Assembly (NCBI GenBank): GCA_965279745.1
Contig: OZ257262.1
Coordinates: forward strand, 329,201-361,200
DNA: 32,000 nucleotides
Reading direction: 5' to 3'
Source of the DNA: Mycobacterium sp.
Lineage (GTDB): Bacteria; Actinomycetota; Actinomycetes; Mycobacteriales; Mycobacteriaceae
Shown: positions 6,273 to 27,700 of the stretch, one piece after another
How the letters are laid out: every line of letters starts with the position of its first letter
Position numbering within the stretch: position 1 is the stretch's first letter
The notes under the pieces: generated by a model
Database searches by the model: none
Told to the model about the DNA's origin: nothing
Seen by the model: the letters and a program-made list of their open reading frames with translations, nothing else
Program-made: the position numbers and the translations under genes

Positions 6273-6349
6273 GGGGCGGTAGCTCAGTTGGTTAGAGCCG
6301 CGGACTCATAATCCGTTGGTCGCGGGTTCGAGCCCCGCCCGCCCTACCA
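6273..6349 (+). tRNA. tRNA-Met, anticodon CAU (elongator-like), genomically encoded CCA
   Basis: Folded by hand. Acceptor stem GGGGCGG/CCGCCCT (G1-U72). D arm GCTC-AGTTGGTT-AGAGC. Anticodon stem GCGGA/TCCGT with loop CTCATAA. Variable loop TGGTC. T arm GCGGG-TTCGAGC-CCCGC. Discriminator A, then CCA. It lacks the three G-C pairs at the base of the anticodon stem that mark initiator tRNA. I cannot exclude tRNA-Ile2 (lysidine-modified CAU). Confidence 0.9.
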
Positions 6350-6356: not shown

Positions 6357-7712
6357 TGTATGACGTCGGTTGATGCTTGACGTTTCGTCTTCGGGTGATG
6401 CCTGACAGTGTTTCGGCTGATGCTTGACAGTTACTTCGGTTGATTCTTGACACTCCCTTAATGAGGGAGATCAGCGTGGCTGAGCAGAGGTATCAGGCGG
6501 TGTTGGCCGTCATCAGTGATGGGTTGTCGATTTCGCAGGTGGCGAGCAAGGTCGGGGTGTCTCGGCAGACCGTGCATGCCTGGTTGGCCCGGTATGAGGC
6601 TGAGGGTCTGGAAGGGCTGAACGATCGGTCGCATCGGCCAGCGAACTGTCCGCATCAGATGCCCGCCGAGGTGGAGGCCGCGGTCTTGGAGTTGCGCCGG
6701 TCACGCCCGTATTGGGGGCCGCGGCGGCTGGTGTTCGAACTGGCTAAACGCAAGGTGCGACCAGTGCCGTCGGAATCGGCGGTGTATCGGGCATTGGTAC
6801 GAGCCGCCATGATCGATCCGACCTTGCGTGATCGGCGATCCCGTAAGTGGAAACGTTGGGAACGCGGTTCAGCGATGGAGTTGTGGCAGATGGACGTCGT
6901 CGGCGGGTTCCCGCTCGCTGATGGCACCAGCGCCAAAGCGCTGACCGGGATTGATGATCACTCCCGGATGTGCGTGTGCGCCCGGTTAATGAGCGCCGAA
7001 CGCACCCGGGCGGTGTGCGACGGACTGCGCGAGGCGTTGGCTACCTATGGGGCTCCCGAGCAGATCTTGACCGACAACGGAAAGGTGTTTACAGGCCGGT
7101 TCAACCATCCGCCTGTAGAGGTGCTCTTTGATGCGATCTGCCGCGAGCAGGGGATCGAGCATCTGTTGACTCAGCCGCGCAGTCCGACCACGACGGGAAA
7201 GATCGAACGATTTCACCGCAGTCTGCGCGCCGAGTTCCTCAGCGAACAAACAGCTTTCCGCAATCTGAAGACAGCTCAGCAGGCACTCGACGAGTGGGTG
7301 GAGTATTACAACACTGCCCGGCCGCACCAGTCGCTGAGATGGACACTCCCGCTCAACGGTTCACCGCCGGCGGTCCTCCCCAGCGTTCATCGACTCCAAC
7401 TGCGATCTCTACCGACCGCACGGGCGAACACTGGGTCAGCCGCAAGGTCTGCGCCAACGGCATCGTCTGTGTGTCCTGGCAACAGGTTTCAGTCGGGGTT
7501 CACCGGGCCGGAGCTCGCTGCGATGTCCACGTCGATGGTGAGCTGTTGCGTTTCTGGATCGGCGAGGAACTAGTCAAGACCGCCACGCGGACCAGCCACG
7601 GCGAGGTAAGAAATAAACGGGCCGCCCGCACCCGCGAGCAGGCCTAACACAACACAAAGAGTGTCAAGGATCAACCGACGCTGAAACGTCAAGAATCAAC
7701 CGACTCTGAACA
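6357..7712 (+). mobile_element. IS481-family insertion sequence, 1356 bp
   Basis: The ends have the TGT...ACA form. IRL is TGTATGACGTCGGTTGATGCTTGACGTTTC. The reverse complement of IRR is TGTTCAGAGTCGGTTGATTCTTGACGTTTC, and the core GTCGGTTGATnCTTGACGTTTC matches at 21 of 22 positions. It carries a single DDE transposase gene and is flanked by a 16-bp direct repeat. Confidence 0.8.
6461..7647 (+). pseudogene. IS481-family DDE transposase, interrupted by a 1-nt frameshift near 7336-7338
   Basis: Frame A (6440/6461..7573) carries the HTH region (SISQVASKVGVSRQTVHAWLARY) and the integrase core (WQMDVV..DDHSR..LTDNGKVF..TTGKIERFH..YYNTARPHQSL), then turns into nonsense. Frame B (..7647) continues with the expected family C-terminus MDTPAQRF..EHWVSRKVCANGIVCVSWQQVSVGVHRAGARCDVHVDGELLRFWIGEELVKTATRTSHGEVRNKRA. 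There is no slippery heptamer at the junction (tcgctgagatgg). Confidence 0.8.
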
Positions 7713-8368: not shown

Positions 8369-8381
8369 CGATGTGCAAGTT

Positions 8382-8410
8382 TTGACAGCTGCCCCAGACA
8401 TTGCTGCAAT
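8382..8410 (+). promoter_or_regulatory. Candidate sigma-A-type promoter for the secreted-protein gene
   Basis: TTGACA (8382-8387), a 17-nt spacer, then TGCAAT (8405-8410). It lies about 47 nt upstream of ATG 8457. An AGGGG Shine-Dalgarno sits 7 nt before the ATG. Confidence 0.4.
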
Positions 8411-8456
8411 TGATGCAGGTGCGCCCAGAAGACGCGCCCAGAACAGGGGTTCTGCA

Positions 8457-8885
8457 ATGAGGGTCATCGGTCATGTCACCGCAGTGGCTGCCTTGGTGTG
8501 CGGGCTCGCGGCGGGAACCCCCCTGGCGAACGCTTCGGACCAGGTTCTCGACGGCACCTATGACGTCGTCGGCCCCAGCAGCACCCTGGACACCTGGGTG
8601 ATAACGACCCACTGCGCTGAAGCCGTCGCCGGCTGCCAGGCAGACGTCCACTCGTCGATAGGCAATGGTCAGGCCCACTACCAGGGCGGATCCCTCTGGG
8701 GGATGACGTTCGCAGGCTTTGTGCCGGTCTGCCTCGACAAGAGCGTGACTAAAGGCGCGATGTCCTTTCAATGGAGCGCGAAGACGCTTGAGGGCCAGCT
8801 GGTGAGCGTCCAACGTGGCCCATGCCAGATGACCCGTCCGGGGCAAACCCAGACCCCATTCAAGCTGGTCAAGGTAGACGTTTAG
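8457..8885 (+). CDS. Small secreted hypothetical protein (about 142 aa, Cys-containing)
   Basis: From ATG 8457 it reads MRVIGHVTAVAALVCGLAAGTPLANA|SDQ, a Sec signal peptide with an ANA cleavage motif. The upstream part of ORF 8373.. lacks an SD and looks non-coding. I recognise no family. Confidence 0.7.
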   Translation: MRVIGHVTAVAALVCGLAAGTPLANASDQVLDGTYDVVGPSSTLDTWVITTHCAEAVAGCQADVHSSIGNGQAHYQGGSLWGMTFAGFVPVCLDKSVTKGAMSFQWSAKTLEGQLVSVQRGPCQMTRPGQTQTPFKLVKVDV

Positions 8886-9040
8886 GGCCACTCCGGCAGG
8901 TCCGCGCCATACGGGACAAGCCGCTGGTTATGTGTGAATTCGATACCGGAGAACCTGATCGGATTTGCTGCGCCACCCCGGTCTCGGCCAGCAGACGCTC
9001 CAACTCGGCCAGATCGCGGTTGCTTAACGATGGAGTACTG

Positions 9041-9976
9041 ATGGTTCCCATCTTTGCAGTCGATGTAAGACTTGTAATCGTGATCGCGCGTCCGGCTGCG
9101 TTCGTGGTGGCCCTTCTGACCCTGTTCGGGGTACAGGGTCCGCGCGCAATGGCGAACCCGGGCGATCCCCCCGGCGGTCTGACATTCGGGGGATTGCAAC
9201 GCACATTTCTGGTGCATGCGCCCGCCGGTGTAGACCACCCGAACGGGCTGGTCCTCAATCTGCACGGCGCCGGAATGACGGCAGGGGACCAGGCCGCGCT
9301 GACCAACTACAACGCGGTGGCCGACCAGTTTGGGTTCGTCGTGGCCTATCCGGACGGCATCGACATGAGTTGGGCTGACGGTCGGGGAGCGTCGGTGCCC
9401 GACCGGGACGGCGTCGATGACGTGGGCTTTCTCGCGGCCCTGATCGGTCAGCTGTCCCGCGACTACGGGATAGCGCCGGGCCGGGTGTTCGTCACCGGGA
9501 TGTCGGCCGGTGCGTTCATGGCGACCCGGCTGGCGTGTGAACGGGCCGACTTGGTCTCGGCTATCGCGCCGGTAGCCGGAACGTTGGGTGCGGCGATGCC
9601 GTGTTCCCCGTCAAGACCTGTCTCGGTGCTTCAGATACACGGAACCGCCGATCCTGTTGTGCCCTACAACGGTGGCCCGATGGTCGGCCGCGGCGGAGCC
9701 AGCGACGTGGTGTCGGCACCGGCGATGGCCGAGCGGTGGCGGGCGCTGGACCGTTGCCCGGGTCCATTGGTTCCGGACGGGACTGGTGAGGTAGTCCGGA
9801 TGGCGGCCACAGGGTGTGCGCAAGGCACCGAAGTGGTCTTGGTGCGGATCGACGGGGGTGGGCACACCTGGCCGGCGGGGCGCTTCGCATTGCCGGCGGC
9901 GACGGTCGGCCCGACCAGTTTCGCGATCGACGCCTCACAGGCCGGCGGGCAGTTCTTCGCCTCGCACGCCGGTTGA
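9041..9976 (+). CDS. PHB-depolymerase-family esterase (LpqC-like secreted alpha/beta hydrolase)
   Basis: LVLNLHGAGMT..FVVAYPDG..DGVDDVGFLAALI..RVFVTGMSAGAFMATRLAC (GxSxG nucleophile)..IAPVAGTL..VSVLQIHGTADPVVPY is the hallmark layout of this family. ATG 9041 gives a hydrophobic leader (MVPIFAVDVRLVIVIARPAAFVVALLTLFG). ORF start 8822 overlaps the previous gene, and ATG 8930 remains possible. Confidence 0.85.
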   Translation: MVPIFAVDVRLVIVIARPAAFVVALLTLFGVQGPRAMANPGDPPGGLTFGGLQRTFLVHAPAGVDHPNGLVLNLHGAGMTAGDQAALTNYNAVADQFGFVVAYPDGIDMSWADGRGASVPDRDGVDDVGFLAALIGQLSRDYGIAPGRVFVTGMSAGAFMATRLACERADLVSAIAPVAGTLGAAMPCSPSRPVSVLQIHGTADPVVPYNGGPMVGRGGASDVVSAPAMAERWRALDRCPGPLVPDGTGEVVRMAATGCAQGTEVVLVRIDGGGHTWPAGRFALPAATVGPTSFAIDASQAGGQFFASHAG

Positions 9977-11915: not shown

Positions 11916-12146
11916 TCATTTTCTCTCGGTGATTTTGACGGCCGTTGAGGCCGAGACTTCACGCAATCGTTCCGCGTGGGTCGGTGTGACCGCGCACGCA
12001 TATTCAGCCTGAAATCGCCGGTCCAAAGCCTGGTGTCCGAAAGACGGCAGTGCCGCTTCAAGGGCCATAGCCGCAGCGTGCCCGCGATGGGTTGTCGAAA
12101 CCAATTGGTTGGCGACACGCGGGTCATGACCCCGATGTGGCGGTTT
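11916..12146 (-). pseudogene. Possible C-terminal remnant of a tyrosine recombinase/integrase (5'-truncated)
   Basis: The minus-strand translation ..THRGHAAAMALEAALPSFGHQALDRRFQAEYACAVTPTHAERL loosely matches the integrase C-terminal pattern (H-x-x-R-H-t-a-A-t-l-a-l-e-a-G ... L-G-H ... Y-s-H-V-t-p). It is degenerate, and this is a motif-level impression only. Confidence 0.3.
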
Positions 12147-12245
12147 GGTTGCTGGCTGGTAGGTTTCCGGGTGGTTTGTTGTGTGGTGTGTGGAATGGGC
12201 TGTGTGGGTGTCTTCAGACATCTGCGTGGTTGTGTTTCTAAAACG

Positions 12246-12274
12246 CTGACACTTGTGGTGTTGGTGTGCATAAT
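12246..12274 (+). promoter_or_regulatory. Near-consensus sigma-A promoter of giant gene copy 1
   Basis: cTGACA (12246-12251), a 17-nt spacer, then cATAAT (12269-12274). The predicted 5' UTR of about 36 nt ends in the strong SD AAGGGGGAG, 5 nt before ATG 12318. Confidence 0.55.
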
Positions 12275-12317
12275 GGGCCGAACCGTGCTGAGAAAGTCCT
12301 GAGAAGGGGGAGTTGTC

Positions 12318-15300
12318 ATGAGTGTTGTTTCTGGTGTTGAGGGTGGTTCGGATTTTGTTGGTTCGGCCAGTTCAGTGCGGGTTGGGCGGGGTGTGGTGGT
12401 GCGTGCTGTGGGGGTTGGTGTGCGTGGTGGGTTGAGGTCTGTGGTGTCGGGTCCTGGGGGTTATGTGGGTCGGGTGGGTGCGTTGGCGGTGGCGTTGGGG
12501 GTGGGTGCTGCGGTGGCGGTGATGCCGGCGGTGGCGTTTGCTGATACGACGGGTTCGGGGGGGGCGTCGGCGTCGGATTCGGGGTCGTCGGGTTCGGTGA
12601 AGGGTGCGCCGGGTCATCGTTCGGGTGGTGCGGGGTCGCGGTCGGGGTCGTCTGCGGGTGGTTCGTCTGCTGGTGGTGTGGGGTCTGAGGGTGTTGTTGA
12701 GGGTGGGGTGTCGGGTTCGTCGGGTGTTGGTGGTGAGTCGGAGGGGTCTTCGGTTGGTGCGGGGTCGGGGGCGGGGTCTGTGTCGGGTGGGGTGAAGTCT
12801 GGTCGTCGGTCGGGGTTGGGTTCGGGTGGTTCGGGTTCGGGTGGTTCGGGGTTTGAGGGTGTGGCGCCGGCGGGTGCGGTGGCGGGTGCGTCGCCGGTGG
12901 TGGTGGGTTCGTCGGGTGTGGGTGGGGTGTCTGTTGTGGTGCCGGAGGTGGGTGTGCCGGTGGTGGATGAGGGTGTGGTGGTTTCGGGTTCTGATGATGT
13001 TGTGGTGGCGCCGGTGTTGTCGGTGGCGCCGCCGGTGGCGGCGGTGCCGTCGGGTGCGGTGTCGGGGTTGGGTGGTGGGTTGTTGTCGTGGCTTGGGTTT
13101 GGTGGTGGGGCTGCGGGTGGTTCGGATGGTTCGGGTGTGGGTGGGCCGTTGGGGTGGGCGTTGTTGGGGTTTGTGCGTCGTGATGGGTCGCGTGGTGGGC
13201 GTGATGTGGCGCCGCCGGCGGCGGGGGTGTCGTCGGGTGAGTCGTCGGGTGGGTTGTGGTCGGGTGCGGGTGCTGCGGTGTCGGGTGTGGGGAGTGTTCC
13301 GTCGGCGGCGTCGGTGGGGTCGTCGGTGGGTGCGGGGGCGAGTGATATTTGGTTGTTTGGGAATGGGACTGCTGAGCATCCTGATGGCGGGATTTTGATT
13401 GGTAATGGGTATTCGTGGACGGGGTATGCGGGGGTGTGCACCAGTGGTGCGTGCAATGGTGGTAATGGTGGGTTGATTGGTTCGGGTGGTGCTGGGTTTG
13501 CGGGTGGTAATGGTGGTTCGGCGGGGTGGTTTGGTTCGGGTGGTGCTGGTGGTGCTGGGACTAATGGTGTTTCTGGTGGTGCTGGTGGTAAGGGTGGTAC
13601 GGGTGGGTTGTTTATTGGTAATGGTGGTAATGGTGGTGCTGGTGGTGCTGCGAGTGCTGGTAATGGTGGTGCGGGTGGTGCTGGTGGGGATACGGGTCTG
13701 ATTTCGTGGGGTGCTGCGGGTAATGGTGGTGCTGGTGGTGTGGGTAGTGGTGGTTTTGTGGGTGGTGTTGGTGGTGCGGGTGGTTCTGCTGGGCTGATTT
13801 CGACGATTAGTTCTGGTGGTGTGGGTGGTGCTGGTGGTGCTGGTGGTACGGGTGGTGCTGGTGGTGCTGGTGGTAATGGTGGTTTGGTGGTTGGTGGTGG
13901 TGGTGCTGGTGGTACGGGTGGGGCGACCACGTTGATTGGTGGTGTGGGTGGTGATGGTGGTGATGGTGGTTCTACGGGGTTGTTGTCGGTGTCGGGTGAT
14001 GGTGGTGCGGGTGGTGCGGGTGGTGCGGGTGGTGCGGGTTTGGCGGGTGTGACGGGGACGTCGCCGGGTGGTGCGGGTGGTGTGGGTACTGCTGGTGGTA
14101 AGGGCGGTGCTGGTGGTGATGGTGGTGCTGGCAGCTTTGTGTTTGGTGCTGGTGGTGCTGGTGGTGCTGGTGGTGCTGGTGGTGTTGGTGGTGTTGGTGG
14201 TACGGGTGCTGCGGGTGCTGGTGCGACGGCTGCGGGTGCTGCTGGTGGTGTTGGTGGTGCTGGTGGTACGGGTGGTGCTGGTGGTGTTGGTGGTGTGGGT
14301 GGTAATGGTGGTGATGGGCGGATTCTGTTCTTTGTTGATTCGTCGGGTGCGGCGGGTGTGGGTGGTAAGGGTGGTTCCGGCGGTGGTGCGGGTGTTGCCG
14401 GTGATGGTGGTGTTGGTGGTGCGGGTAATGCGGGCACGCCTGATGGTGGTGCGGGTGGTGCTGGTGGTAATCCGGGTAAGGCCGGTGTGGGTGGTGCCGG
14501 TGGTGCGGGTGGTTCGGGTAATGGTGGTGGTGGTGCTGGTGCTTCGGGTGCTGCGGGTTCGGCGGCGACCTCGGGGGGTAATGGCGGTAATGGTGGGGCT
14601 GGGTTCAGTGCTGTGGTGGCGGGTGCTGGCGGTAATGGTGGTGCTGGCGGTGCTGGTGGCGCGGTGGGTAATGGCGGTAATGGTGGTGCGGCGGGTGCGG
14701 GTGCTGGGGGTACGGCGGGCACTTCTGGTGTGACGGGCACTGATGGTGGTTCTGGTTTCGCTGGTGGTGTGGGTGGTGCTGGTGGTGCTGGTGGTAGCAC
14801 GTCGGGTAATGGTGGTAATGGTGGTGCGGGTGGTGCCGGTGGTGCTGGTGGTGCGGGTGGTAGTGGTTCTGATGGTGCTGCCGGGGTGGGTTCGGGTGCT
14901 TCGGGTAGTGATGGTGGTGATGGTGGTTCTGGTGGTAAGGGCGGTAAGGGTGGTGCCGGCGGTAACGCGGGTAAGGCGTTGGGGGCTGGTTCGGCTGGGG
15001 TGAATGGCACTGGTGGTGCTGGTGGTACGGGTGGTAGTGCGGGTAATGCGGGTAATGGTGGTACGGGTGCGGCGGGGACGAACATCATCACTCCTGATGG
15101 TGGTGCTGGTGGTAATGGTGGTGAGTTGGGTACTGCGGGTACTGGTGGTGCTGGTGGTGCGGCGGGTACTGGTGGTTCTGGTGGTGCGACCGGTAGTGAT
15201 GGCGGTAATGGCGGGTCGGGTTCTGGTGGTAATGGTGGTGCGGGTGGTGCCGGCTGGAATTCCACGGTGACCAATGTGGCTGGCGGTAATGGTGGTGCGG

Positions 15301-16967
15301 GTGGTAACGCGGGCACGGTCGGTAATGGTGGTGCTGGTGGTGCGGGTGGTAACGGGTCGACCGGGACTGCTGGTGGTGCTGGTGGTGCGGGTGTTGGTGG
15401 CGGTAATGGTGGTGCGGGGTCCACCGCGGGTAATGGTGGTGCTGGTGGTGCTGGTGGCACGTTGGTGGGTAATGGTGGTGCTGGTGGTGTTGGTGGTGTT
15501 GGTGGTGCGGGTGGTAATGGTGGTGCTGGTGGTGATGGTGCTACTGGTGGTGCTGGTGTGGCTGGTGGTACTGGTGGTGATGGTGGTACCGGGGGTAGTG
15601 GTGCTAAGGGTGGCCAGGGCGGTGCGGGTGGTGCTGCGGGTGGTAAGGGCAGTGTCGGACAGAACGGTAATGGTGGTGCTGGTGGCGCCGGGGGTGATGC
15701 GGGTAACGCCGGCAATGGCGGTAATGGTGGTGCCGGGACTGCGTTGAACCCGGATGGTGGTGCTGGTGGTAATGGCGGCAATGTCGGGTTCGCTGGTACT
15801 GGTGGTGCTGGTGGTGCGGCGGGTAGTGGTGGCACTGGTGGGGTGAGTGGGGTTACCGGTGGTGATGGTGGTTCTGCTGGTGGCGGTAATGGCGGTAATG
15901 GTGGTGCGGGGTGGAACAGCCTTACTGCGTCGAAGGCTGGCGGTAAGGGTGGTGCTGGTGGTGCTGGTGGTTTCGTCGGTAATGGTGGTGTTGGTGGTTC
16001 TGGCGGTAACGGTGCGAGTGGTCAGGCCGGTGTTGATGGTGGTGTCGGGGTTGATGGGACCAGTGGTGGTAATGCCAGCGCTGGTGGTGCCGGTGGTGCG
16101 GGCGGTGCTGGTGGGGCGATAGCGGGTTCTGGTGGTGCTGGTGGTTCTGGCGGTAATGGTGGTTCTGGTGGTGCGGGCGGTAATGGTGGTAACGGTGCTG
16201 CTGGTGGTGCTGGTTTGGCTGGTGGGACTGGTGGTAATGGCGGTACGGGTGGTAACGGTGCTGCTGGTGGTGCTGGTGGTGCTGGTGGTAAGGCGGTCGG
16301 TATTGGTTCTGCCGGTAGTGATGGCAGTGGTGGTGCGGGTGGCACGGGTGGTAATGCCGGTAATGCCGGTAATGGTGGTACCGGTGGTGCGGGTGTGTCG
16401 TCGGTGACTCCGAATGGTGGTGCTGGTGGTAATGGTGGTGAGCGTGGCGCGGCGGGTGCTGGCGCTGCCGGTGGTGCCGCGGGTGGTCCTGGTGGTACGA
16501 CGGGTGCTAGTGGTGTTGGTGGTGCTGCGGCGTCGGGTGGCAATGGTGGTAATGGTGGTGCTGGCTGGAACAGCAATGATCCGTCGAAGGCTGGCGGTAA
16601 GGGTGGTGCTGGTGGTAACGCGGGTTCGGTCGGTGATGGTGGTGCTGGTGGTGCCGGCGGTAATGGTGCTTCGGGTGCGGTAGGGGCTAATGCCGGTCCG
16701 GGTGGCAATGGTGGTCTTGGTGGTGCGGGCAGTGTTGGTGGTGCCGGTGGTGCTGGCGGTAACGGCGGGTCGTCGAAGGGTGACGGCGGTGCTGGTGGTG
16801 TCGGTGGTGTGGGTGGTGCCGGCGGTAACGGCGGTAACGGCGGTAACGGCGCTACCGGGGTTGGTGGTGGTGCGTCGGTGGTGATGGCGGTAATGGTGGC
16901 ACTGGTGGTGCTGGTGCTGCTGGTGGTAAGGGCGGCACGCACGGGTTCGCGCTCGGTGGTGGTGTGA
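12318..16967 (+). CDS. Giant secreted PGRS-like glycine-rich repeat protein, 5' segment (ORF ends artificially because of a 1-nt deletion at 16876)
   Basis: Supported by the promoter, the SD and ATG 12318. The signal peptide is ..[25 protein letters not shown]|D (cleavage after residue 75). It is followed by a Ser/Gly/Val-rich linker of about 260 aa, then the PGRS-type onset [43 protein letters not shown] and GGAGGxGG repeats. The last 31 residues (..[17 protein letters not shown]..) are out-of-frame read-through. Confidence 0.8.
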
Positions 16968-19900
16968 ATGGTGCTGATGGCAATGGTGGTACTGGTGGCA
17001 CGGGTGGTAATGCTGGTGATGCCGGTAATGGTGGTGCTGGTGCTGGTGGTACTTCGGGTTCGCCGGATGGTGGTACCGGTGGTGATGGTGGTGATCGGGG
17101 TACTGCCGGTGTTGGTGGTGCCGGGGGTGCTGCTGGAGGGACTGCGGGTTCTGCCGGTGTGACAGGCGCTGATGGTTCTGGGGCGTCGGGTGGTAATGGT
17201 GGTGCTGGTGGTGCCGGTTGGACCAGCACGAGTGGTGCTACCGCTGGTGGTAATGGTGGTGCTGGTGGTAACGCGGGTACCTATGGCAATGGTGGTGCTG
17301 GCGGTGCTGGTGGTACTGGTGCTGGGGGTACTGCGGGGATTGCGGGGGCGACTGCTGCTGCCGGTGGTGCCGGTAATAACGGCGGCACGGGTGGTAATGG
17401 CAGTGCTGGTGGTGCTGGTGGTGCTGGTGGTAAGGGCGGTTCGGTCGCCGGTAATGGTGGTGCTGGTGGTGTTGGTGGTGCCGGTGGCTCGGGTGGTACC
17501 GGTGGCGCCGGGTCTGATGGTGGGCTCGGGGTGATCACGATCAACGCTGGTGCTGGTGGTAACGGTGGTACGGGTGGTACTGGTGGTGCTGGTGCTTCTG
17601 GTGGTGCTGGTGGTGCTGGTGGTGCTGCGGGTGGTGTTGGTTCCTCGGGTGCGGATGCTGATGGTGGTGCTGGTGGTTCCGGTGGTAATGCCGGTAATGC
17701 CGGTAATGGTGGTACGGGTGCTCAGGGTGATTTGAACTTGGGTCCTGCTAATGGTGGTGCTGGCGGTAATGGTGGTACGTGGGGCACTGCGGGTGCTGGT
17801 GCTGCTGGCGGTGCCGCGGGTGGGGCGGGTGCTAGCGCGGGGTCGAGTGGTTCTTCGGGTACGGCGGCTACTGCTGGTGGTAACGGTGGTGATGGTGGTG
17901 CCGGCTGGAACAGCACGAACCCGGCGTTCGGTGGCGGTAATGGTGGTGCCGGCGGTAATGCCGGTTCGTTGGGTACTGGTGGTAATGGTGGTACTGGTGG
18001 TCAAGGGTTCACTGGTGTTACCGGTGCGGTAGGGGCCACTGGTGGTGGTGCTGGTGGTAACGGTGGTACCGGTACCGCGGGTGGTAACGGTGGTGCTGGC
18101 GGTAATGGTGGTGTGTTCGGTGGTAACGCCGGTAATGGTGGTAATGCCGGTAATGGTGGTACCGGTGGTGCTGGCGGTAATGGTGGTACCGGTGCTTCCG
18201 GTGGTGCTGGTGGTACTGCCGGTAATGGTGGTAGTGGTGGCGCCGGGGGCAGTGGTGGTGCTGGTGGTAAGGCGTTGGTGGCTGGGTTCACCCATGGCAA
18301 TGGCGGTAATGGTGCTACCGGTGGTACTGGGGGTAACGCCGGTAATGGTGGTACTGGTGGTGGTGGTACTGCGGGCACACCTAATGGTGGTGATGGTGGT
18401 GCTGGTGGTACGCGTGGTGGTGCTGGTGCTTCGGGTGCTGGTGGTGCCGCGGGTGGTACGGGTGCGTCGGCGGGGTCGGCGGGGACCTCGGGTGCCGCGG
18501 GGACCACTGGCGGTAATGGTGGTGCTGGTGGTGCGGGCTGGAACAGCGACTCGAGTAGCGCTGCTGGTGGTGCCGGCGGTAAGGGTGGTGCCGCGGGTGC
18601 TATCGGTGATGGTGGTGCTGGTGGTGCTGGTGGTAATGGTTTTGCTGGTGCTGCTGGTGGTAACGGCTCTACTGGCGGGTACGGGGTTTCTGGTGGAGAC
18701 GCCACGTCTAATGGTGGTTGGGGCACTGCTGGTGGTGCTGGTGGTGCTGGTGGTACGGGCGGGACGACCTCGGGTAAGGGTGGTTCCGGTGGTGCTGGTG
18801 GTGTTGGTGGTGTTGGTGGTACCGGCGGTAACGGCGGTAACGGTGGTACCGGGACGACCGCGGGCAGTGGTTCCGGCGGTAATGGTGGTACCGGCAGTGC
18901 TGGTGGTACCGGTGGTACCGGTGGTGCTGGGGGTGCTGCGGGTAAGGCTGGCGGCACGGGTGGTACGACCGGTGCTAATGGCAGTGGCGGTAATGGTGGT
19001 ACTGGTGGTGCTGCGGGTAACGCCGGTAATGGTGGTGCTGGTGCTGGCGGGACGGCGGGCACACCGAATGGTGGCGATGGTGGTGAGGGCGGTAACCGTG
19101 GTGCCGCCGGTAATGGTGGTACCGGGGGCTTGGCTGGTGGCACGACCGGCGGTGCGGCGGCGGGGACCACGGGGAGCACTGGTGGTGTCGGGGCGTTGGG
19201 TGCCGGCGGTAATGGTGGTTCTGGTGGTGACGGCTTTGATGGGTCGGGTACCACGGGCGCTAACGGCGGTAATGGCGGTAAGGGTGGTGCGGCTGGTTCG
19301 TTCGGTAATGGTGGTGCCGGTGGTAAGGGCGGTAATGGTGGCGGGGGGACCGCGGGGACTGCGGGGACCACGGGCAGCACTGATGGCGTTACTGGTCAGG
19401 CTGGTGGTGTTGGTGGTGCTGGTGGTGCTGGTGGTAGGGGCGGTTTGGTCCAGGGTGATGGTGGTGCCGGCGGTAAGGGCGGTAACGGTGCTACCGGTGG
19501 TACCGGTGGTGACGGCCATGATGGTGCGGCCGGGGTTACCGGGGTAAATAACGGTGTTGGTGGTGCTGGTGGTACTGGCGGTAATGGTGGTGCTGGTGGT
19601 GCCGGTGGTAAGGGTGGTAAGGGTGGTACGGCGGCGTCGGGTACTACCGGTGCTAATGGCAGTGGCGGTAACGGTGCTACTGGTGGTAACGCGGGTAACG
19701 CCGGTAACGGTGGGGCCGGTGCTACCGGGACGGTGGCTAACCCGAATGGCGGTAATGGTGGTACCGGCGGTACTCGGGGTACTGCTGGTGGTGCTGGTGC
19801 TGCTGGTGCTTCGGGGACCACTCCGGGTGGCGCGTCGGGGTCGACCGGGACTGCCGGGACTACTGGTGCTGGGGCCACGTTCGGTGGTAACGGCGGTAAT

Positions 19901-20000
19901 GGTGGTAACGGCTACAACGACCTGACCACCGGTGCCAGCGCCGGTAACGGCGGTAACGGTGGTAACGCCGGGTTGATCGGTAACGGCGGTAATGGTGGTA
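14600..20000 (+). repeat. Array of at least 8 higher-order modules of about 630-700 bp (about 220 aa) inside the giant gene
   Basis: An anchor motif GG(N/D)GG(A/N)G(W/F/Y)(N/T/D)S recurs near 14603, 15255, 15912, 16566, 17219, 17906, 18539, 19236 and 19914. Each is preceded by [10 protein letters not shown]..(T/N)P(D/N)GGxGGxGGxxGxAG and followed by ..[26 protein letters not shown]. Confidence 0.75.
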
Positions 20001-22975
20001 ACGGTGGCGCGGCGGATGCCCAGACCGGTACCAGCACCGGGGTGATCAGGACTGGCGGTAATGGTGGTGCTGGTGGTGCTGGTGGTGCCACGTCGGGTAA
20101 CGGTGGTGCCGGTGGTGCTGGTGGCAACGCGCATACCCGCGATTCGGGTTCGCGGGCGATCGGTGGTGCTGGCGGTGCTGGTGGCGCGTCGATCGGGGCC
20201 ACGGGCTCGAGCAGTGCCGCGGGTAATGGTGGTGCCGGTGGTAACGGGAACTCTGAACAGGATCACGGCTTCGGTGGTACCGGTGGTGCTGGCGGGTCGG
20301 TGGCGTTCGCTGACGGTAATGGCGGTAATGGTGGTGCCGGTGGTGGTGCTACGGGTGCCGGTATTGCTGCTGGTGGTGCTGGTGGTGCTGGTGGTGCTGT
20401 CGGTTCTGGTGTCGGTAACGGCGGTAATGGTGGTGCTGGTGGTGGCGCCTCTGGTGACACGTTCGTCAGCTCGACCGGTGGTGCTGGTGGTGCCGGTGGT
20501 ACCGGCGGTGCTGGTGGTGGTGATGGTGGTGCTGGCGCGGTCGGTGGTGACGCGACCTCGGTCAATACCATTGCTACCGGTGGTGCTGGTGGTAAGGGCG
20601 GATTCGCGGCGGGCACGGTCGGTAACGGTGGTGCTGGTGGTGCCGGTGGTAGCGGTGCGGCCGGGGCCTCTGGTGATACCGCCACGGGCGGTCAGGGTGG
20701 TGCCGGTGGTGGCGCGTCTGCCGGTAACGGTGGTGCTGGTGGTGCCGGTGGCGGCGCCTCAGTCGGCGCGACGGGCTTCGCTGCCTTTGGTGGTGCCGGC
20801 GGTGCCGGTGGTGCTGGTGGCGGTGTCGGTAACGGTGGTGCCGGCGGTAAGGGCGGCAACGCACAAGGCATCGGATTCGTTGGAACCTTCGATGCGCAGG
20901 CCGGTGTCGGTGGTATCGGTGGGGCCGCGGGGGTGACCGGTACCGGTGGCCAGGGCGGCGACGGCGGTGACGCCGTGTCCACAGGCACCGGCATCGTCAA
21001 CACCGGCGCTGTTGGTGGTAACGCCGGTAAGGGCGGCACCGGCGGATCCACCAGTGGCAACGGCGGCGCCGGCGGCAAGGGCGGCGCAGCCACCGCGGCG
21101 GATAGCTTCGCCAAGGGCGGTGCGGCCGGTAATGGTGGTAACGCTGTCAACGCCGGCAACGGTGGTGTCGGCGGTCGCGGCGGCGACGCCACGATGACAG
21201 GCGCCGGTTCCACGGCTAACGGTGGTGTTGGTGGTCAAGGTGGTGCGGCGGGCAGCCTCAGCGGTAACGGCGGTGCTGGTGGCCGCGGCGGCGACGCGTC
21301 CGCGACCGGGGCAGGTTCGACCGCCACCGGTGGTGCCGGTGGTACTGGTGCTAACGCCGCCGTCGAAGGTGCCGGTGCTGGTGGCGCCGGCGGTGACGCC
21401 ACCTCAGCGGTCGGCAATGCTCGCGGTGGTGTTGGTGGTAAGGGTGGTGACGGTGCGCTCGGCACCGCAGGTACCACCGGCGGAGTCGGGGGTGCGGGCA
21501 CGACCGGTGCGGCTGGTGGGGCTGGTGGCAGCGCTACCGCAGGCGGCACGGGTAGCGCAATCGGCGGTATCGGCGGCACCGGCGGTGCCGGTGGTGGCGG
21601 TGGGCTCGGCGGCAATGGCAGTGCCGGGACCACCGGTGCTGCAGGCAATACCGCTGGCGCTGGTGGCACCGCTGGTAACGGTGGTAGCGGTGGTGCCGGT
21701 GGAGTTGCAACCACCAGCGGTACCGGGACCGCGGTCGGCGGCAAGGGTGGGCTCGCCGGTGCCGGTGGTACAGGCGGTAAAGGCGGAGTCGGCGGCACCG
21801 GCGGAACCGGGGGTGCCACAGGCGGTGCGGGCGGTGCTGGTGGTGTCGGCGGCAACGCCGGCATCGGTGGTGCCGGTGGCGCCGCAGTCGCTACCGGCGT
21901 CGGAACAATAGCTATCGGCGGAGAAGGCGGCGGTGCTGGCGCGCAAGGCGCCGGTGGCGTTGGTGGTACCGGTGGTGTTGGTGGTACCGGGGCCGCGCTG
22001 GGCGCCGGGGGCAAGGGCGGCAAGGGCGGCGCCGGCGGTAACAACGGCAACGGAGGTGTTGGTGGTGTTGGTGGCACCGGGACCTCTAGCGACGGCAATG
22101 CGATCGGTGGTACTGGCGGCAATATCGCCGTTGCTTCGGTTGCTGCTGCGGCGGGTGGCAAGGGTGGTGCTGGTGGCGCCACCGGTGCCGGTGGCGTGAC
22201 CGGCGGCAACGGCGGCGACGGGGGCAACGGCGGCAAGGCCGGTACAGGTTTTGTCGGTGGGACCGGCGGCAGCGCCTTCTCTAGCGGAACAAACGCTTCT
22301 GCGGTCGGCGGCGTCGGTGGGTCGACCATCAGTTCGACTACGGGTGGAGCAGGTGGTGCTGGAGGTGCGGCCGCGGGTGGTGGTGGAACCACCGGCGCGA
22401 CGGGCGGCACCGGTAGTGCCGGTATCGGTGGTGCTGGCGGCAACGGCGGTAACGCGACCTCCACCAACGGAGCCGCCTTGGGCGGTAACGGCAACATTGG
22501 AGGCGATGCTGGCAGCGGTACTGGTGGTGTTGCGGGGACGGCTGGTAATGGCGGTAGCGCCACGGCCGGCGGAACCAATGCCGGAGCCACTGGTGGGAAG
22601 GGCGGCGTCGGCGGCTCAGGCGCTCCTGCTAACGCGTTCGGTGCTCAGGGTGGCATTGGTGGCAGTGCGACTTCCACCAATGGATTCGCTGTGGGCGGTA
22701 CCGGTGGTCGCGGTGGCGATACATCCAGTGTGATCGGGGGTACCGGTGGTAAGGGCGGCGACGCCGTGGCTGGCGGAACCAACTCTCCGGCCACCGGTGG
22801 TGCCGGCGGTGCCGGCGGCAACGCCACCGTGGCTGGCGGTACGGGCGGTAACGGCGGTAACGGCGGCGACGCCTCGTCGGCCGCCGGAATCCCGACCGGC
22901 GGCAACGGCGGCGGCGGCGGCACTGGTATCGCCCCCGGGGTCAACGGCACCCCAGGCACCCACGGCAACCCCTAA
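16964..22975 (+). CDS. 3' segment of the same giant glycine-rich gene (a continuation, not an independent gene)
   Basis: The GTG at 16964 is an internal Val codon in copy 2, where the frame runs straight through (..[42 protein letters not shown]..). There is no RBS. The same repeat architecture continues. The C-terminal part of about 900 aa switches to GGxGGxGGDA/S-type repeats. The stop at 22973-22975 is followed by a strong hairpin. Confidence 0.8.
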
Positions 22976-23009
22976 GCACGGGGTAGTCGATACGCACAAC
23001 TGACAACGA

Positions 23010-23050
23010 CGGCGGGGATCCGCTCCTTTCACAGGAGAGGACCCCCGCCG
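23010..23050 (+). terminator. Intrinsic terminator-like hairpin downstream of giant gene copy 1
   Basis: In CGGCGGGGATCCgCTCCTttcacAGGAGagGGACCCCCGCCG the outer arms match at 11 of 12 positions, and there is an inner 5-bp stem. It is followed by ctgttgtg and begins 35 nt after the stop codon. Confidence 0.55.
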
Positions 23051-23140
23051 CTGTTGTGCGCTTGACGCGGTGCAGTGCGAGTTGGGTGAGGTTTGTGGTG
23101 CTGCGATAGGTCAGAGGTCGATCTTCCGTAGGACCGTCGT

Positions 23141-23590
23141 CTACTCGTTGGCCAAGCCCGCGACGCCGGCCAAGGACTGTCTCAACTTCGGTTGACTCGC
23201 GGTGTGAAGCTCAGGCCGCGTTTGCGGCAGTGCGAAGCCGCTGAGCGAAATTGGCTGCGTCGATGCGAATGGACCACTGACCAGATCCGGCTCTGATTCC
23301 GCGTCCGAGCAGCTCTTCGGCGATGTAGCTGTACCCGTAGGTTGGGTCGTCGCCGTGAGTGTCGATCGCGGCATGGATGGGTGCGTGTCGTCCGGGTTCT
23401 GTTGTTGATGCCGAGCTCCCTTCGATGCGCTCAGGATCAATGCCGCAAGGAAGCAGTTGCTCATCGCCGTCGTCACTCTGAACGAATTCGCCTACCACCG
23501 GCCCCATGACCGCGCCGAGCAATTGGGCCTGTTGACGACGGTTGAGAACCCGGCCAGTCGGGACGGTTGAAAAGTCGGCCTGACCTGTTC
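23141..23590 (-). pseudogene. Degenerate IS3-family transposase (OrfB N-terminal region) fragment
   Basis: The minus-strand translation ..HAPIHAAIDTHGDDPTYGYSYIAEELLGRGIRAGS resembles the conserved IS3 OrfB segment (..IH..DP.FGYR.I..EL...G...). In a shifted frame, PDLVSGPFASTQP resembles DLV.R.F.A..PN. There are multiple frameshifts and deletions, and it is truncated by the adjacent IS remnant. Confidence 0.35.
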
Positions 23591-24201
23591 CCACTTTTGA
23601 CCTGTCCCGGCTTCCCGGACGGCTGGTGTTGGGTGTTCACGCGGCCGTGTTGGTGGTCGTGTGGTGTCTTTCGTAGTCGATAGGGCTGCAGTAGTCCAGA
23701 GCGCTGTGACGGCGGACGGGTTCGATCTGCAGGGAGCCAAAGAACGATTCGATCATCGCGTTGTCAAAGGCGGAGGCCACCTGGCCCATAGAAGCCAGGA
23801 GGCCTGCCTCGCGGAGCCGGTGGCCGAACAGCCAACTGGTACTGGGTTCCGCGGTCGGAGTGCACGATCGTGCCGACGGGTTTGCGGCGTAGTCGGGCCA
23901 TGTCGAGAGCGTCGGCGAACAGTTCGGTCCGCAAGTGATCGGCGATCGACCAGCCGACCACCCGGCGGTAGACCGTAGGTCTGCCGTGAGCCGGTATGGA
24001 TCGCCACGACGGTGTTGGCTAACTCGGCGTCCACACGATCGCTGGTCCTTGGCAACCCGAGCGATCGGCTTCTCCCGCAGCCGGGCCAACTCCACCGCAC
24101 GACGGCGAAACTCCTCCGAATAAGCAGCGGTCATCGTTTCTCTGACTCCTTCCGTTGAGACGATCATCGCCTCAACCGCGGTGTCTGGGAAAGTGGGAAC
24201 A
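23586..24201 (-). mobile_element. Internally deleted IS3-family element (616 bp) that retains both terminal inverted repeats
   Basis: The termini TGTTCCCACTTT (23586-23597) and AAAGTGGGAACA (24190-24201) form a perfect 12-bp inverted repeat. The [10 protein letters not shown] and ATG 24134 open the orfA N-terminus MTAAYSEEFRRRAVELARLREKPIARVAKD. It is then fused, through deletions and frame changes, to OrfB pieces RVDAELANTVVAIHTGSRQTYG, VVGWSIADHLRTELFADALDMA..VGTIVHSDRGTQY and ..MGQVASAFDNAMIESFFGSLQIE..RRHSALDYCSPIDYE. No flanking target duplication is seen. Confidence 0.65.
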
Positions 24202-24480
24202 GGGGTCGCCCGCCTCAATGCCGCCCACAACGCCGGGCGCCTGCCGGCCGAACTGGTCACGCTGCGTCGCGTCGGATCGCTAGTCGGGACGAGGTCGGCT
24301 ACATCCCGTTCAAGCAGGACGCCGCGAACCGGGGGCAGACCCTTGCCCTCGGCCAGAGCAGACAACACCGCACAATAATCCACGACCACGTGCCCACTTT
24401 TCACCGTCGCTTCCGGGCCTAGGTTTCGACCATCGTCAACAGGGCCGCGCGGTCTACCGTCATCTACTCGTGCAGCAGAC
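24202..24480 (+). pseudogene. IS21-family IstB-like ATPase fragment (C-terminal part, frameshifted)
   Basis: The plus-strand translation ARLNAAHNAGRLPAELVTLRR.. then, after a -1 shift, ..DEVGYIPFKQDAAN matches the IstB pattern (L..L..A...G.L...L..L.. LLIIDE.GY.P.....A). Downstream it is degenerate. It begins exactly at the IS3-remnant boundary. Confidence 0.4.
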
Positions 24481-24684
24481 ACACTCCAGTCGTCGTTTGT
24501 GGTTGAGATTTTGAGAGTCGACCTGGGACGGAGTGGTCGGTGGAGGATTCGTTGGCGTGGTTGGGTGGGTCCTCGTGTGCCTGTTGGGTTGCTGGCTGGT
24601 AGGTTTCCGGGTGGTTTGTTGTGTGGTGTGTGGAATGGGCTGTGTGGGTGTCTTCAGACATCTGCGTGGTGGCGATTCGACACG

Positions 24685-24713
24685 CTGACACTTGTGGTGT
24701 TGGTGTGCATAAT
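24685..24713 (+). promoter_or_regulatory. Promoter of giant gene copy 2 (same -35/-10 as copy 1)
   Basis: cTGACA 24685-24690, a 17-nt spacer, then cATAAT 24708-24713. The SD and ATG 24757 are the same as in copy 1. The sequence immediately upstream of -35 differs from copy 1. Confidence 0.5.
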
Positions 24714-24756
24714 GGGCCTAACCGTGCTGAGAAAGTCCTGAGAAGGGGGAGTTGTC

Positions 24757-27700
24757 ATGAGTGTTGTTTCTGGTGTTGAGGGTGGTTCGGATTTTGTTGG
24801 TTCGGCCAGTTCAGTGCGGGTTGGGCGGGGTGTGGTGGTGCGTGCTGTGGGGGTTGGTGTGCGTGGTGGGTTGAGGTCTGTGGTGTCGGGTCCTGGGGGT
24901 TATGTGGGTCGGGTGGGTGCGTTGGCGGTGGCGTTGGGGGTGGGTGCTGCGGTGGCGGTGATGCCGGCGGTGGCGTTTGCTGATACGACGGGTTCGGGGG
25001 GGGGCGTCGGCGTCGGATTCGGGGTCGTCGGGTTCGGTGAAGGGTGCGCCGGGTCATCGTTCGGGTGGTGCGGGGTCGCGGTCGGGGTCGTCTGCGGGTG
25101 GTTCGTCTGCTGGTGGTGTGGGGTCTGAGGGTGTTGTTGAGGGTGGGGTGTCGGGTTCGTCGGGTGTTGGTGGTGAGTCGGAGGGGTCTTCGGTTGGTGC
25201 GGGGTCGGGGGCGGGGTCTGTGTCGGGTGGGGTGAAGTCTGGTCGTCGGTCGGGGTTGGGTTCGGGTGGTTCGGGTTCGGGTGGTTCGGGGTTTGAGGGT
25301 GTGGCGCCGGCGGGTGCGGTGGCGGGTGCGTCGCCGGTGGTGGTGGGTTCGTCGGGTGTGGGTGGGGTGTCTGTTGTGGTGCCGGAGGTGGGTGTGCCGG
25401 TGGTGGATGAGGGTGTGGTGGTTTCGGGTTCTGATGATGTTGTGGTGGCGCCGGTGTTGTCGGTGGCGCCGCCGGTGGCGGCGGTGCCGTCGGGTGCGGT
25501 GTCGGGGTTGGGTGGTGGGTTGTTGTCGTGGCTTGGGTTTGGTGGTGGGGCTGCGGGTGGTTCGGATGGTTCGGGTGTGGGTGGGCCGTTGGGGTGGGCG
25601 TTGTTGGGGTTTGTGCGTCGTGATGGGTCGCGTGGTGGGCGTGATGTGGCGCCGCCGGCGGCGGGGGTGTCGTCGGGTGAGTCGTCGGGTGGGTTGTGGT
25701 CGGGTGCGGGTGCTGCGGTGTCGGGTGTGGGGAGTGTTCCGTCGGCGGCGTCGGTGGGGTCGTCGGTGGGTGCGGGGGCGAGTGATATTTGGTTGTTTGG
25801 GAATGGGACTGCTGAGCATCCTGATGGCGGGATTTTGATTGGTAATGGGTATTCGTGGACGGGGTATGCGGGGGTGTGCACCAGTGGTGCGTGCAATGGT
25901 GGTAATGGTGGGTTGATTGGTTCGGGTGGTGCTGGGTTTGCGGGTGGTAATGGTGGTTCGGCGGGGTGGTTTGGTTCGGGTGGTGCTGGTGGTGCTGGGA
26001 CTAATGGTGTTTCTGGTGGTGCTGGTGGTAAGGGTGGTACGGGTGGGTTGTTTATTGGTAATGGTGGTAATGGTGGTGCTGGTGGTGCTGCGAGTGCTGG
26101 TAATGGTGGTGCGGGTGGTGCTGGTGGGGATACGGGTCTGATTTCGTGGGGTGCTGCGGGTAATGGTGGTGCTGGTGGTGTGGGTAGTGGTGGTTTTGTG
26201 GGTGGTGTTGGTGGTGCGGGTGGTTCTGCTGGGCTGATTTCGACGATTAGTTCTGGTGGTGTGGGTGGTGCTGGTGGTGCTGGTGGTACGGGTGGTGCTG
26301 GTGGTGCTGGTGGTAATGGTGGTTTGGTGGTTGGTGGTGGTGGTGCTGGTGGTACGGGTGGGGCGACCACGTTGATTGGTGGTGTGGGTGGTGATGGTGG
26401 TGATGGTGGTTCTACGGGGTTGTTGTCGGTGTCGGGTGATGGTGGTGCGGGTGGTGCGGGTGGTGCGGGTGGTGCGGGTTTGGCGGGTGTGACGGGGACG
26501 TCGCCGGGTGGTGCGGGTGGTGTGGGTACTGCTGGTGGTAAGGGCGGTGCTGGTGGTGATGGTGGTGCTGGCAGCTTTGTGTTTGGTGCTGGTGGTGCTG
26601 GTGGTGCTGGTGGTGCTGGTGGTGTTGGTGGTGTTGGTGGTACGGGTGCTGCGGGTGCTGGTGCGACGGCTGCGGGTGCTGCTGGTGGTGTTGGTGGTGC
26701 TGGTGGTACGGGTGGTGCTGGTGGTGTTGGTGGTGTGGGTGGTAATGGTGGTGATGGGCGGATTCTGTTCTTTGTTGATTCGTCGGGTGCGGCGGGTGTG
26801 GGTGGTAAGGGTGGTTCCGGCGGTGGTGCGGGTGTTGCCGGTGATGGTGGTGTTGGTGGTGCGGGTAATGCGGGCACGCCTGATGGTGGTGCGGGTGGTG
26901 CTGGTGGTAATCCGGGTAAGGCCGGTGTGGGTGGTGCCGGTGGTGCGGGTGGTTCGGGTAATGGTGGTGGTGGTGCTGGTGCTTCGGGTGCTGCGGGTTC
27001 GGCGGCGACCTCGGGGGGTAATGGCGGTAATGGTGGGGCTGGGTTCAGTGCTGTGGTGGCGGGTGCTGGCGGTAATGGTGGTGCTGGCGGTGCTGGTGGC
27101 GCGGTGGGTAATGGCGGTAATGGTGGTGCGGCGGGTGCGGGTGCTGGGGGTACGGCGGGCACTTCTGGTGTGACGGGCACTGATGGTGGTTCTGGTTTCG
27201 CTGGTGGTGTGGGTGGTGCTGGTGGTGCTGGTGGTAGCACGTCGGGTAATGGTGGTAATGGTGGTGCGGGTGGTGCCGGTGGTGCTGGTGGTGCGGGTGG
27301 TAGTGGTTCTGATGGTGCTGCCGGGGTGGGTTCGGGTGCTTCGGGTAGTGATGGTGGTGATGGTGGTTCTGGTGGTAAGGGCGGTAAGGGTGGTGCCGGC
27401 GGTAACGCGGGTAAGGCGTTGGGGGCTGGTTCGGCTGGGGTGAATGGCACTGGTGGTGCTGGTGGTACGGGTGGTAGTGCGGGTAATGCGGGTAATGGTG
27501 GTACGGGTGCGGCGGGGACGAACATCATCACTCCTGATGGTGGTGCTGGTGGTAATGGTGGTGAGTTGGGTACTGCGGGTACTGGTGGTGCTGGTGGTGC
27601 GGCGGGTACTGGTGGTTCTGGTGGTGCGACCGGTAGTGATGGCGGTAATGGCGGGTCGGGTTCTGGTGGTAATGGTGGTGCGGGTGGTGCCGGCTGGAAT

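Follow-up and report, generated by a model that had tools for sequence, protein, structure and literature searches.

Reciprocal one-base indels in two near-identical copies of a giant PGRS-type gene of a Mycobacterium sp.

When two near-identical genes lie in the same orientation and each is broken by one base where the other is intact, do the two lesions form a system that stores one functional gene in two parts, or are they separate events, some of them perhaps introduced during assembly? This question is raised by a 32,000-nucleotide (nt) stretch of the genome of a Mycobacterium sp. (assembly GCA_965279745.1, contig OZ257262.1, positions 329,201 to 361,200 of the forward strand), here called the window, in whose own coordinates all positions are given. 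Judging from the sequence, the window holds one type of gene present twice: 3552 codons long, of the PGRS type, encoding a protein without a PE domain that is predicted to be secreted and rich in polyglycine II. A sequence-only reading made earlier had noticed the reciprocal lesions and proposed that recombination between the copies would regenerate a full-length gene, with consensus error as the alternative. We consider that the reciprocal pattern probably consists of two independent one-base events and not of a system, and that at least one of the two lesions is rather likely to be a residual consensus error of long-read sequencing.

Two copies of one gene and their differences

Comparison of the window with itself by megablast gave one direct repeat, 12136-19559 versus 24576-32000, aligned over 7426 columns at 99.84% identity with 9 mismatches and 3 gaps; the spacing between the two copies is 12.44 kb. 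The copy 1 unit, delimited by the repeat boundary and the repaired translation, spans 12136-22975 on the plus strand and contains the promoter region and the whole giant gene, which measures 10,659 nt after a missing C is put back. The copy 2 unit (24576-32000, plus strand), with a promoter-like site at 24685-24713 and its ATG at 24757, is truncated by the window end, and both its 3′ end and that of the identity block lie beyond the window. Between the two units, alignment and family scan placed a unique spacer of 1.6 kb (22976-24575) with a remnant of an IS3-family transposase.

Base-by-base alignment located all 9 mismatches and one of the indels 5′ of the ATG, at 12140-12280. Three mismatches fall at the ragged edge of the repeat (12140-12146), and the stretch 12231-12280 holds 6 substitutions and 1 indel: a diverged 12-nt patch (12231-12242 versus 24671-24681) lies just upstream of the −35-like hexamer, and a single-nucleotide difference, G at 12280 versus T at 24719, lies 6 nt downstream of the −10-like hexamer. 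From 12281, 38 nt upstream of the ATG, to 19559 (~7.3 kb), there were only two differences between the copies, both of them 1-nt indels, and 0 substitutions. The first is G8 at 12557-12564 in copy 1 versus G9 at 24996-25004 in copy 2; the second is a single C at 16876 in copy 1 versus CC at 29316-29317 in copy 2. Around the second, copy 1 reads gcgtcggtggtgat at 16872-16885 and copy 2 reads gcgtccggtggtgat at 29312-29326, which the sequence-only reading had given correctly to the base. Both indels are read straight off the sequence, so chance is not an issue for them. The stretch between the lesions (12565-16875 in copy 1, 25005-29315 in copy 2, plus strand) is 4311 nt long without a listed difference, in agreement with the roughly 4.3 kb of identity claimed earlier.

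At the copy 1 lesion (16875-16877), TCG stands in place of the TCCG of copy 2, and this loss of one C shifts the frame at codon 1520. As a result the gene appears in the list of open reading frames (ORFs) as two, both on the plus strand. ORF 1 (12318-16967, 1549 amino acids, aa) encodes the signal peptide, a Gly/Ser/Val linker and PGRS repeats, its last 30 residues being out of frame; ORF 2 (16964-22975, 2003 aa) is, by the repaired translation, the remainder of the same gene, has no signal peptide of its own, and begins at a GTG that overlaps the TGA of ORF 1 (GTGA). When the C was restored, the two ORFs fused into 3552 codons with one terminal stop, which together with the ORF list upholds the claim that the missing C ends the frame of copy 1 at 16967 and makes an apparent gene at GTG 16964. 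The frameshift falls in the middle of the super-repeat 1414-1631, and the 218-aa super-repeat spacing across the junction (1414 to 1632) was intact only in the repaired, CC frame. In addition, the CC-form motif GGTGC(G/T)TCCGGTGGTG was seen again in a paralogous unit at 18191 and 30632, and the form of this site without the C was unique. Because the super-repeat register and the paralogous unit agree, CC, as found at 29316-29317 in copy 2, and G8 are, as far as sequence tells, the ancestral in-frame states. The 'second gene' at GTG 16964 is therefore evidently only a by-product of ORF calling, the downstream part of the split gene. No internal donor for the C-less variant was found that could have supplied it by intragenic conversion. 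Programmed ribosomal frameshifting at 16876 was also considered and seems unlikely, as there is no slippery sequence there. Copy 1 is evidently not a null allele, as it still encodes the signal peptide and 1519 in-frame residues, with predicted export. The out-of-frame tail of ORF 1 (16877-16967, ~30 residues) is hydrophobic over a stretch that resembles a transmembrane segment and then turns basic, a character that arises because (GGT)n is read in a shifted frame.

In copy 1 the G8 tract (12557-12564, plus strand) has the in-frame, ON length; it covers codons 80-83, just after the predicted cleavage site AFA/DTTGS. In copy 2 the G9 tract (24996-25004, plus strand) is the lesion: the frame from ATG 24757 stops at 25126-25128, and the ORF list accordingly shows a stub of 123 aa (24757-25128). 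The downstream frame of copy 2 opens only at 24962, 35 nt 5′ of the tract; its product would therefore have no signal peptide, and copy 2 is predicted to yield no exported protein. For the same reason we rejected G9 as an alternative ON state with another start. Removal of one G from copy 2 gave 2414 aa free of stops to the window end, exactly as in repaired copy 1. The earlier statement that each copy is broken where the other is intact thus stands: the in-frame states G8 and CC are split between the copies, and either repair gives the same protein.

The G8/G9 tract is the sole homopolymer of at least 7 nt in the window and, like the tracts of phase-variable genes, is at least 7 nt long and lies in the 5′ coding region, with G8 in frame and G9 out. 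A G run of at least 8 was, however, reached in 72% of synonymous shuffles of codons 1-450, which places G8 within the expectation from Gly codon usage. No tract was present at this position in the relatives L007, L009 and L012, three of the related loci described below; in another, L004, the frame continues through an unrelated G8 at a different place in the gene. We therefore rejected G8 as a selected contingency tract, since it does not exceed chance in the shuffles and the relatives have no tract at its position.

Both copies carry the same putative signals for expression. In copy 1 the promoter-like site CTGACA-17-CATAAT lies at 12246-12274 on the plus strand (10/12 matches; shuffles average 0.1 sites), and a Shine-Dalgarno-like AAGGGGGAG stands just upstream of ATG 12318; the promoter-like site, the ribosome-binding site and the ATG are the same in copy 2. 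A terminator-like hairpin with a T-rich tail, at 12198-12241, was seen in copy 1 only.

Origin of the two indels

What the sequence shows is the anatomy of the locus, its ancestral states and the geometry for recombination; how the two indels arose we infer. Over at least 7.3 kb of identity only long reads could resolve the copies, and the errors that such reads leave would be homopolymer indels, which short-read polishing would be powerless to remove inside an exact repeat of this length. We favour at least one consensus error because the repeat needs long reads and could not be polished by short ones, because the differences are indels only, and because one of them sits on the longest homopolymer. 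That homopolymer, G8/G9, is the longest in the window and lies within at least 7.3 kb of near-identity; C/CC is a 2-mer inside the same near-identical repeat. Seen in this way, the earlier proposal that the lesions are biological lacks support: both are indels, no substitution accompanies them, and the repeat is resolvable by long reads only. In mutation-accumulation lines of M. smegmatis, substitutions arose at 5.27e-10 and indels at 1.27e-10 per site per generation, and 78.7% of the indels were in simple repeats (PMC4938668). From these rates, a neutral indel outside a repeat would precede any substitution with a likelihood of ~5-19%. There is precedent for such errors, as HiFi resequencing cast many 1-bp frameshifts in pe_pgrs genes of a published M. 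tuberculosis reference as probable sequencing errors (PMC12817950), and gene-fragmenting homopolymer indels are known in long-read assemblies (PMC12007338). If the lesions are real after all, G9 would be an ordinary slipped-strand OFF state that slippage reverts, and loss of the C would be a recent mutation that truncates the protein but still allows export of a 1549-aa product.

We used the phase of the GGN codons to follow the frame through the repeats, since the other frames are poor in stops and compensating frameshifts could escape notice. In copy 1 the phase changed a single time, where the C is missing, and within the repeats of copy 2 it stayed constant, which indicates that the repeat region holds no hidden compensated frameshifts; apparent switches at 12961-13381 and at the copy 2 counterparts were dismissed as noise in the non-PGRS linker. 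A related locus in a presumed Nanopore-derived metagenome-assembled genome (MAG), L007 of MFD05442.bin.2.188, had 14 GGN phase flips along a PGRS-like stretch of ~6 kb, of which 13 fall in the 4 kb at 14.1-18.3 kb; either its consensus is full of errors or it is a pseudogene in decay. No flips occurred inside the genes of the relatives L004 (2118 aa), L009 (1827 aa), L020 and L021, which come from short-read MAGs, and we count this contrast in favour of a consensus error.

Several observations weigh against a consensus error. Both copies present the same context, and a systematic base-calling error should strike both; the difference between them would therefore need stochastic error or low coverage. 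No other indel errors were seen in the window: its ten neighbouring genes are intact, frame plots of G+C at third codon positions (GC3) gave no unexplained frame changes, all 5-6-nt homopolymers in single-copy genes lie within open frames, and across ~16 kb of repeat the GGN phase changes nowhere else. Nor does C versus CC belong to the contexts in which errors classically arise. Genuine slippage at homopolymers has been amply recorded in mycobacteria, PE_PGRS genes included (PMC10334774; 10.1101/717272), true frameshifts are frequent in mycobacterial PGRS genes, and a single hit per copy is what is expected under selection against the full-length protein. We searched for sequence of the same species in which the alleles could be compared, by exact matches to three window proteins and by scans of genome and metagenome contigs, and found none. 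An exact DNA pattern across the G tract, with G6-G10 allowed, had no match in metagenome contigs, and protein-guided scans of genome and metagenome contigs returned distant family members only, the best at 35-71% identity over the full region.

A tentative alternative, which we hold to be possible though doubtful, is that both lesions are real and that two recently homogenised copies were each knocked out once. Copy 2 would then have been turned OFF by G8 to G9 slippage after the signal peptide, and copy 1 truncated at codon 1520; full-length protein could be regained by G9 to G8 slippage, by conversion across either lesion, or by a RecA-mediated pop-out. The geometry and the identity of the 4311-nt stretch fit this account. 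As the repeats are direct, with the lesion of copy 1 toward its 3′ end and that of copy 2 toward its 5′ end, a pop-out keeps G8 from the 5′ end of copy 1 and CC from the 3′ end of copy 2, so that a crossover at 12565-16875 would leave one intact gene and discard a circle carrying both defects. What the sequence-only reading had said of a crossover anywhere between the lesions, and of a doubly defective partner, therefore agrees with the repeat geometry; its extension to conversion tracts does not, since a tract must cover one of the lesions. Likewise, recombination suits the arrangement of the two copies as a route of restoration but is not needed for copy 2, for which G9 to G8 slippage suffices and would effect repair more easily. 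Also in favour of two real lesions are the promoter-like site and ribosome-binding site kept in both copies, the otherwise clean assembly, the single hit per copy mentioned above, and the contrast between two mutational events in the 171 nt upstream and 0 substitutions in the ~7.3 kb downstream, which fits ongoing gene conversion. As expected under concerted evolution, diverged sequence borders a block that is identical in the two direct paralogues (seen at the 5′ boundary; the 3′ one is outside the window), and conversion has been documented for the tandem PE_PGRS17/18 pair (PMC1762029). The same contrast between upstream and coding sequence could, however, come from polishing with multi-mapped reads. 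Tracts of at least 7 nt are phase-variable across M. tuberculosis isolates, including those of PE_PGRS25 and PE_PGRS31 (PMC10334774), and an 8C tract of M. tuberculosis reverted to 7C at about 1e-2 in culture (10.1101/717272), both of which speak for real lesions. On the other side, a 1-nt deletion outside a repeat and before any substitution is improbable under neutrality, as calculated above; conversion frequent enough to remove all substitutions would be expected to wipe out the lesions, or copy them across, within a short time; and the searches brought up no other genome of this species in which either allele could be confirmed. A two-tier switch for a giant exported PGRS protein, with fast G8/G9 slippage in copy 2 and slow recombination between copies, strikes us as a long shot.

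Two further explanations concern the arrangement as a whole. One is that the copies themselves are an artefact, strain haplotypes or a mis-joined repeat placed in tandem, the 'copies' being alleles of one locus. Metagenomes and strain mixtures can mis-assemble in this way, and the near-perfect identity of the copies would fit, but the left flanks are unlike (a methyltransferase gene before copy 1, the spacer with the IS3 remnant before copy 2), the homology starts at a defined point (12136/24576) and then passes through the diverged patch at 12231-12242 and the difference at 12280, and the unique spacer of 1.6 kb separates the copies; we regard this explanation as very unlikely. The other, a selected two-key switch in which one functional gene is stored across two defective copies and recombination turns on its expression, we regard as extremely unlikely. 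Only the favourable geometry supports it, in that the pop-out keeps the intact recombinant. Neither copy is a silent cassette, the promoter-like site and the start being the same in both; the copies are identical, so recombination yields no diversity; the pop-out is irreversible; and the same arrangement was seen at no other locus among 31 related loci. The G tract is neither enriched nor conserved in family members, and together with the identical promoter-like sites and copies this gives, as far as the sequence can tell, no sign of a designed switch. For the same two identities the locus is not a cassette system. In pilE/pilS and vlsE-like variation a single expression site is accompanied by silent cassettes that are sequence-diverse and promoterless, whereas here both copies have a promoter-like site, a ribosome-binding site and an ATG.

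Our preferred explanation, in which at least one lesion is a residual consensus error, relates the locus to the gene-fragmenting indels of long-read assemblies (PMC12007338, PMC12817950). It resembles these in having 1-base indels, one of them in the longest homopolymer, in a repeat that short reads could not polish, with a gene split into two apparent ORFs; it differs in that the surrounding assembly shows no such errors and that copies of identical context differ. Phase variation at mycobacterial tracts (glpK 7C; espA, ppe13 and PE_PGRS genes; PMC10334774, 10.1101/717272) likewise involves a G:C tract of at least 7 nt in 5′ coding sequence and a 1-base switch of frame, in bacteria without MutS/MutL. 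There, lengths differ between isolates or subpopulations, whereas here they differ between paralogous copies in one assembly; the tract is also no longer than codon usage predicts. The conversion between PE_PGRS17 and PE_PGRS18 described by Karboul et al. 2006 (PMC1762029) also concerns adjacent direct PGRS paralogues with a homogenised block bounded by diverged DNA. In that case a 12-bp insertion and 40 single-nucleotide polymorphisms were transferred, as shown across many strains, whereas here conversion would be deduced from 0 versus 6 substitutions on the two sides of 12280.

There are precedents for PGRS paralogues with frameshifts, for slippage at homopolymers, for gene conversion and for indel errors from long reads, and whichever explanation holds, the event is of an ordinary kind for mycobacterial PGRS genes. 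If the lesions are real, the locus would illustrate from nature how two defective paralogues with complementary lesions could give back a functional gene, and homopolymer phase variation, studied mainly in the M. tuberculosis complex, would extend to an environmental mycobacterium and its PGRS-type surface protein. If they are errors, the lesson is one of annotation, with one giant gene called as two or three ORFs, and exact repeats would be where long-read indel errors outlive polishing.

The encoded protein and its family

Gly makes up 46.7% and Ala 16.9% of the repaired protein, which carries GGAGGxGG motifs along its length and has at least 9 super-repeats of 217-233 aa, each marked by the motif GAGW(N/T)S. 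Residues 49-75, followed by DTTGS, resemble a Sec signal with an AxA cleavage site, and the N-terminus is thus a putative Sec-like signal peptide. This signal module was 80-97% conserved in about 30 loci from MAGs of environmental Mycobacterium/Mycolicibacterium and from metagenomes. After the signal come a low-complexity Gly/Ser/Val linker, a conserved two-Cys motif ending in ....C.GGNGGL, and the PGRS repeats; the linker motifs LLSWLG and PLxWxALAxxRR, conserved in the family, confirm the frame of the linker. Scans of the N-terminal ORF gave neither the PE domain (PF00934, about 110 aa) nor any other Pfam/NCBIfam family. The repeats themselves are those of a PGRS domain, tandem Gly-Gly-Ala / Gly-Gly-Asn, with mycobacterial PGRS proteins as homologues, and the nearest database proteins are mycobacterial, some of them labelled PE-PGRS family protein. 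Because the PE domain is lacking, we class the giant gene, by its sequence features, as PGRS-like and not as a strict member of the PE_PGRS family. Relatives carry C-terminal domains, a YVTN beta-propeller in L009 and an HExxH domain in L012, and database matches carry beta-lactamase, GH12 or PecA domains in that position. At 3552 aa, the protein of the window is by far the largest member seen in the L001-L031 family.

An AlphaFold model of residues 321-761 had a mean predicted local distance difference test (pLDDT) score of 64.7, with 106 residues at 90 or above. About 165 residues (about 25-190) stood at pLDDT 85-96 with no helices or strands, and the best matches of the model in the PDB were the polyproline-II bundle antifreeze proteins 7jjv (E 5e-4) and 3bog.

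The protein may be compared with the PE_PGRS proteins of M. tuberculosis and M. marinum and with the PGRS proteins of M. smegmatis/Mycolicibacterium (PMC11939664), with which it shares Gly repeats of the GGAGGxGG type. Like the PE_PGRS genes, the gene is repetitive, recombination-prone and of a kind often seen frameshifted, and the modelled start of its repeats may resemble the polyproline-II bundle, the type of fold proposed for PGRS domains. Unlike them, it has a conserved Sec-like signal and a linker in place of the PE domain, a length of 3552 aa with 218-aa super-repeats, and GGT for ~70% of its Gly codons. The Sec-like signal with its AFA/D motif may point to an export route other than ESX-5 (type VII). 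In the literature searched, PGRS proteins with a conserved Sec-type signal instead of PE were little described, and this family bears on a question posed in PMC11939664, namely by what means PGRS proteins leave those mycobacteria for which export through PE/ESX-5 is unconfirmed.

The use of GGT for ~70% of the giant gene's Gly codons was seen in a genome of ~63% G+C, and the coding strand at 12000-32000 had a GC skew of +0.4 to +0.65 and an AT skew of −0.2 to −0.7. This skewed composition accounts for long stop-free ORFs in several reading frames and also on the other strand, such as one of 2401 aa on the minus strand at 24755-31960.

Spacer and neighbouring genes

The IS3-family transposase remnant in the spacer lies on the minus strand at 23637-24482 (NF033516, E 4.6e-8); the match is far below the family cut-off, so we take it for a fragment. 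It consists of OrfA-like and C-terminal OrfB-like pieces and ends ~90 nt from the left boundary of copy 2. An insertion sequence may thus have been involved in the duplication.

Some 6 kb upstream of the copies, a tRNA-Met (CAT) at 6273-6349 is followed by an intact IS481-family transposase gene at 6440-7573, and this site may be the edge of an island. Plasmids of Rhodococcus and M. ulcerans carry tRNA copies with 92-99% identity to this tRNA, which was the only match when the window was compared with a plasmid collection.

The intact neighbouring genes include those for two ABC permeases, TldD, PmbA, a beta-eliminating lyase, an esterase and a methyltransferase. The esterase gene is immediately preceded by 8451-8885, which encodes a small predicted secreted protein (MRVIGHVTAVAALVCGLAAGTPLANA..., about 144 aa), for which no Pfam/NCBIfam match was obtained. 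A further frameshift in the esterase region (8373-9976) was considered and rejected, as there are two separate genes with a signal peptide each. TldD shared 92% identity with its best match among database proteins and 89% with the TldD of Mycobacterium sp. NBC_00419; with identities only this high, the host is a novel mycobacterium.

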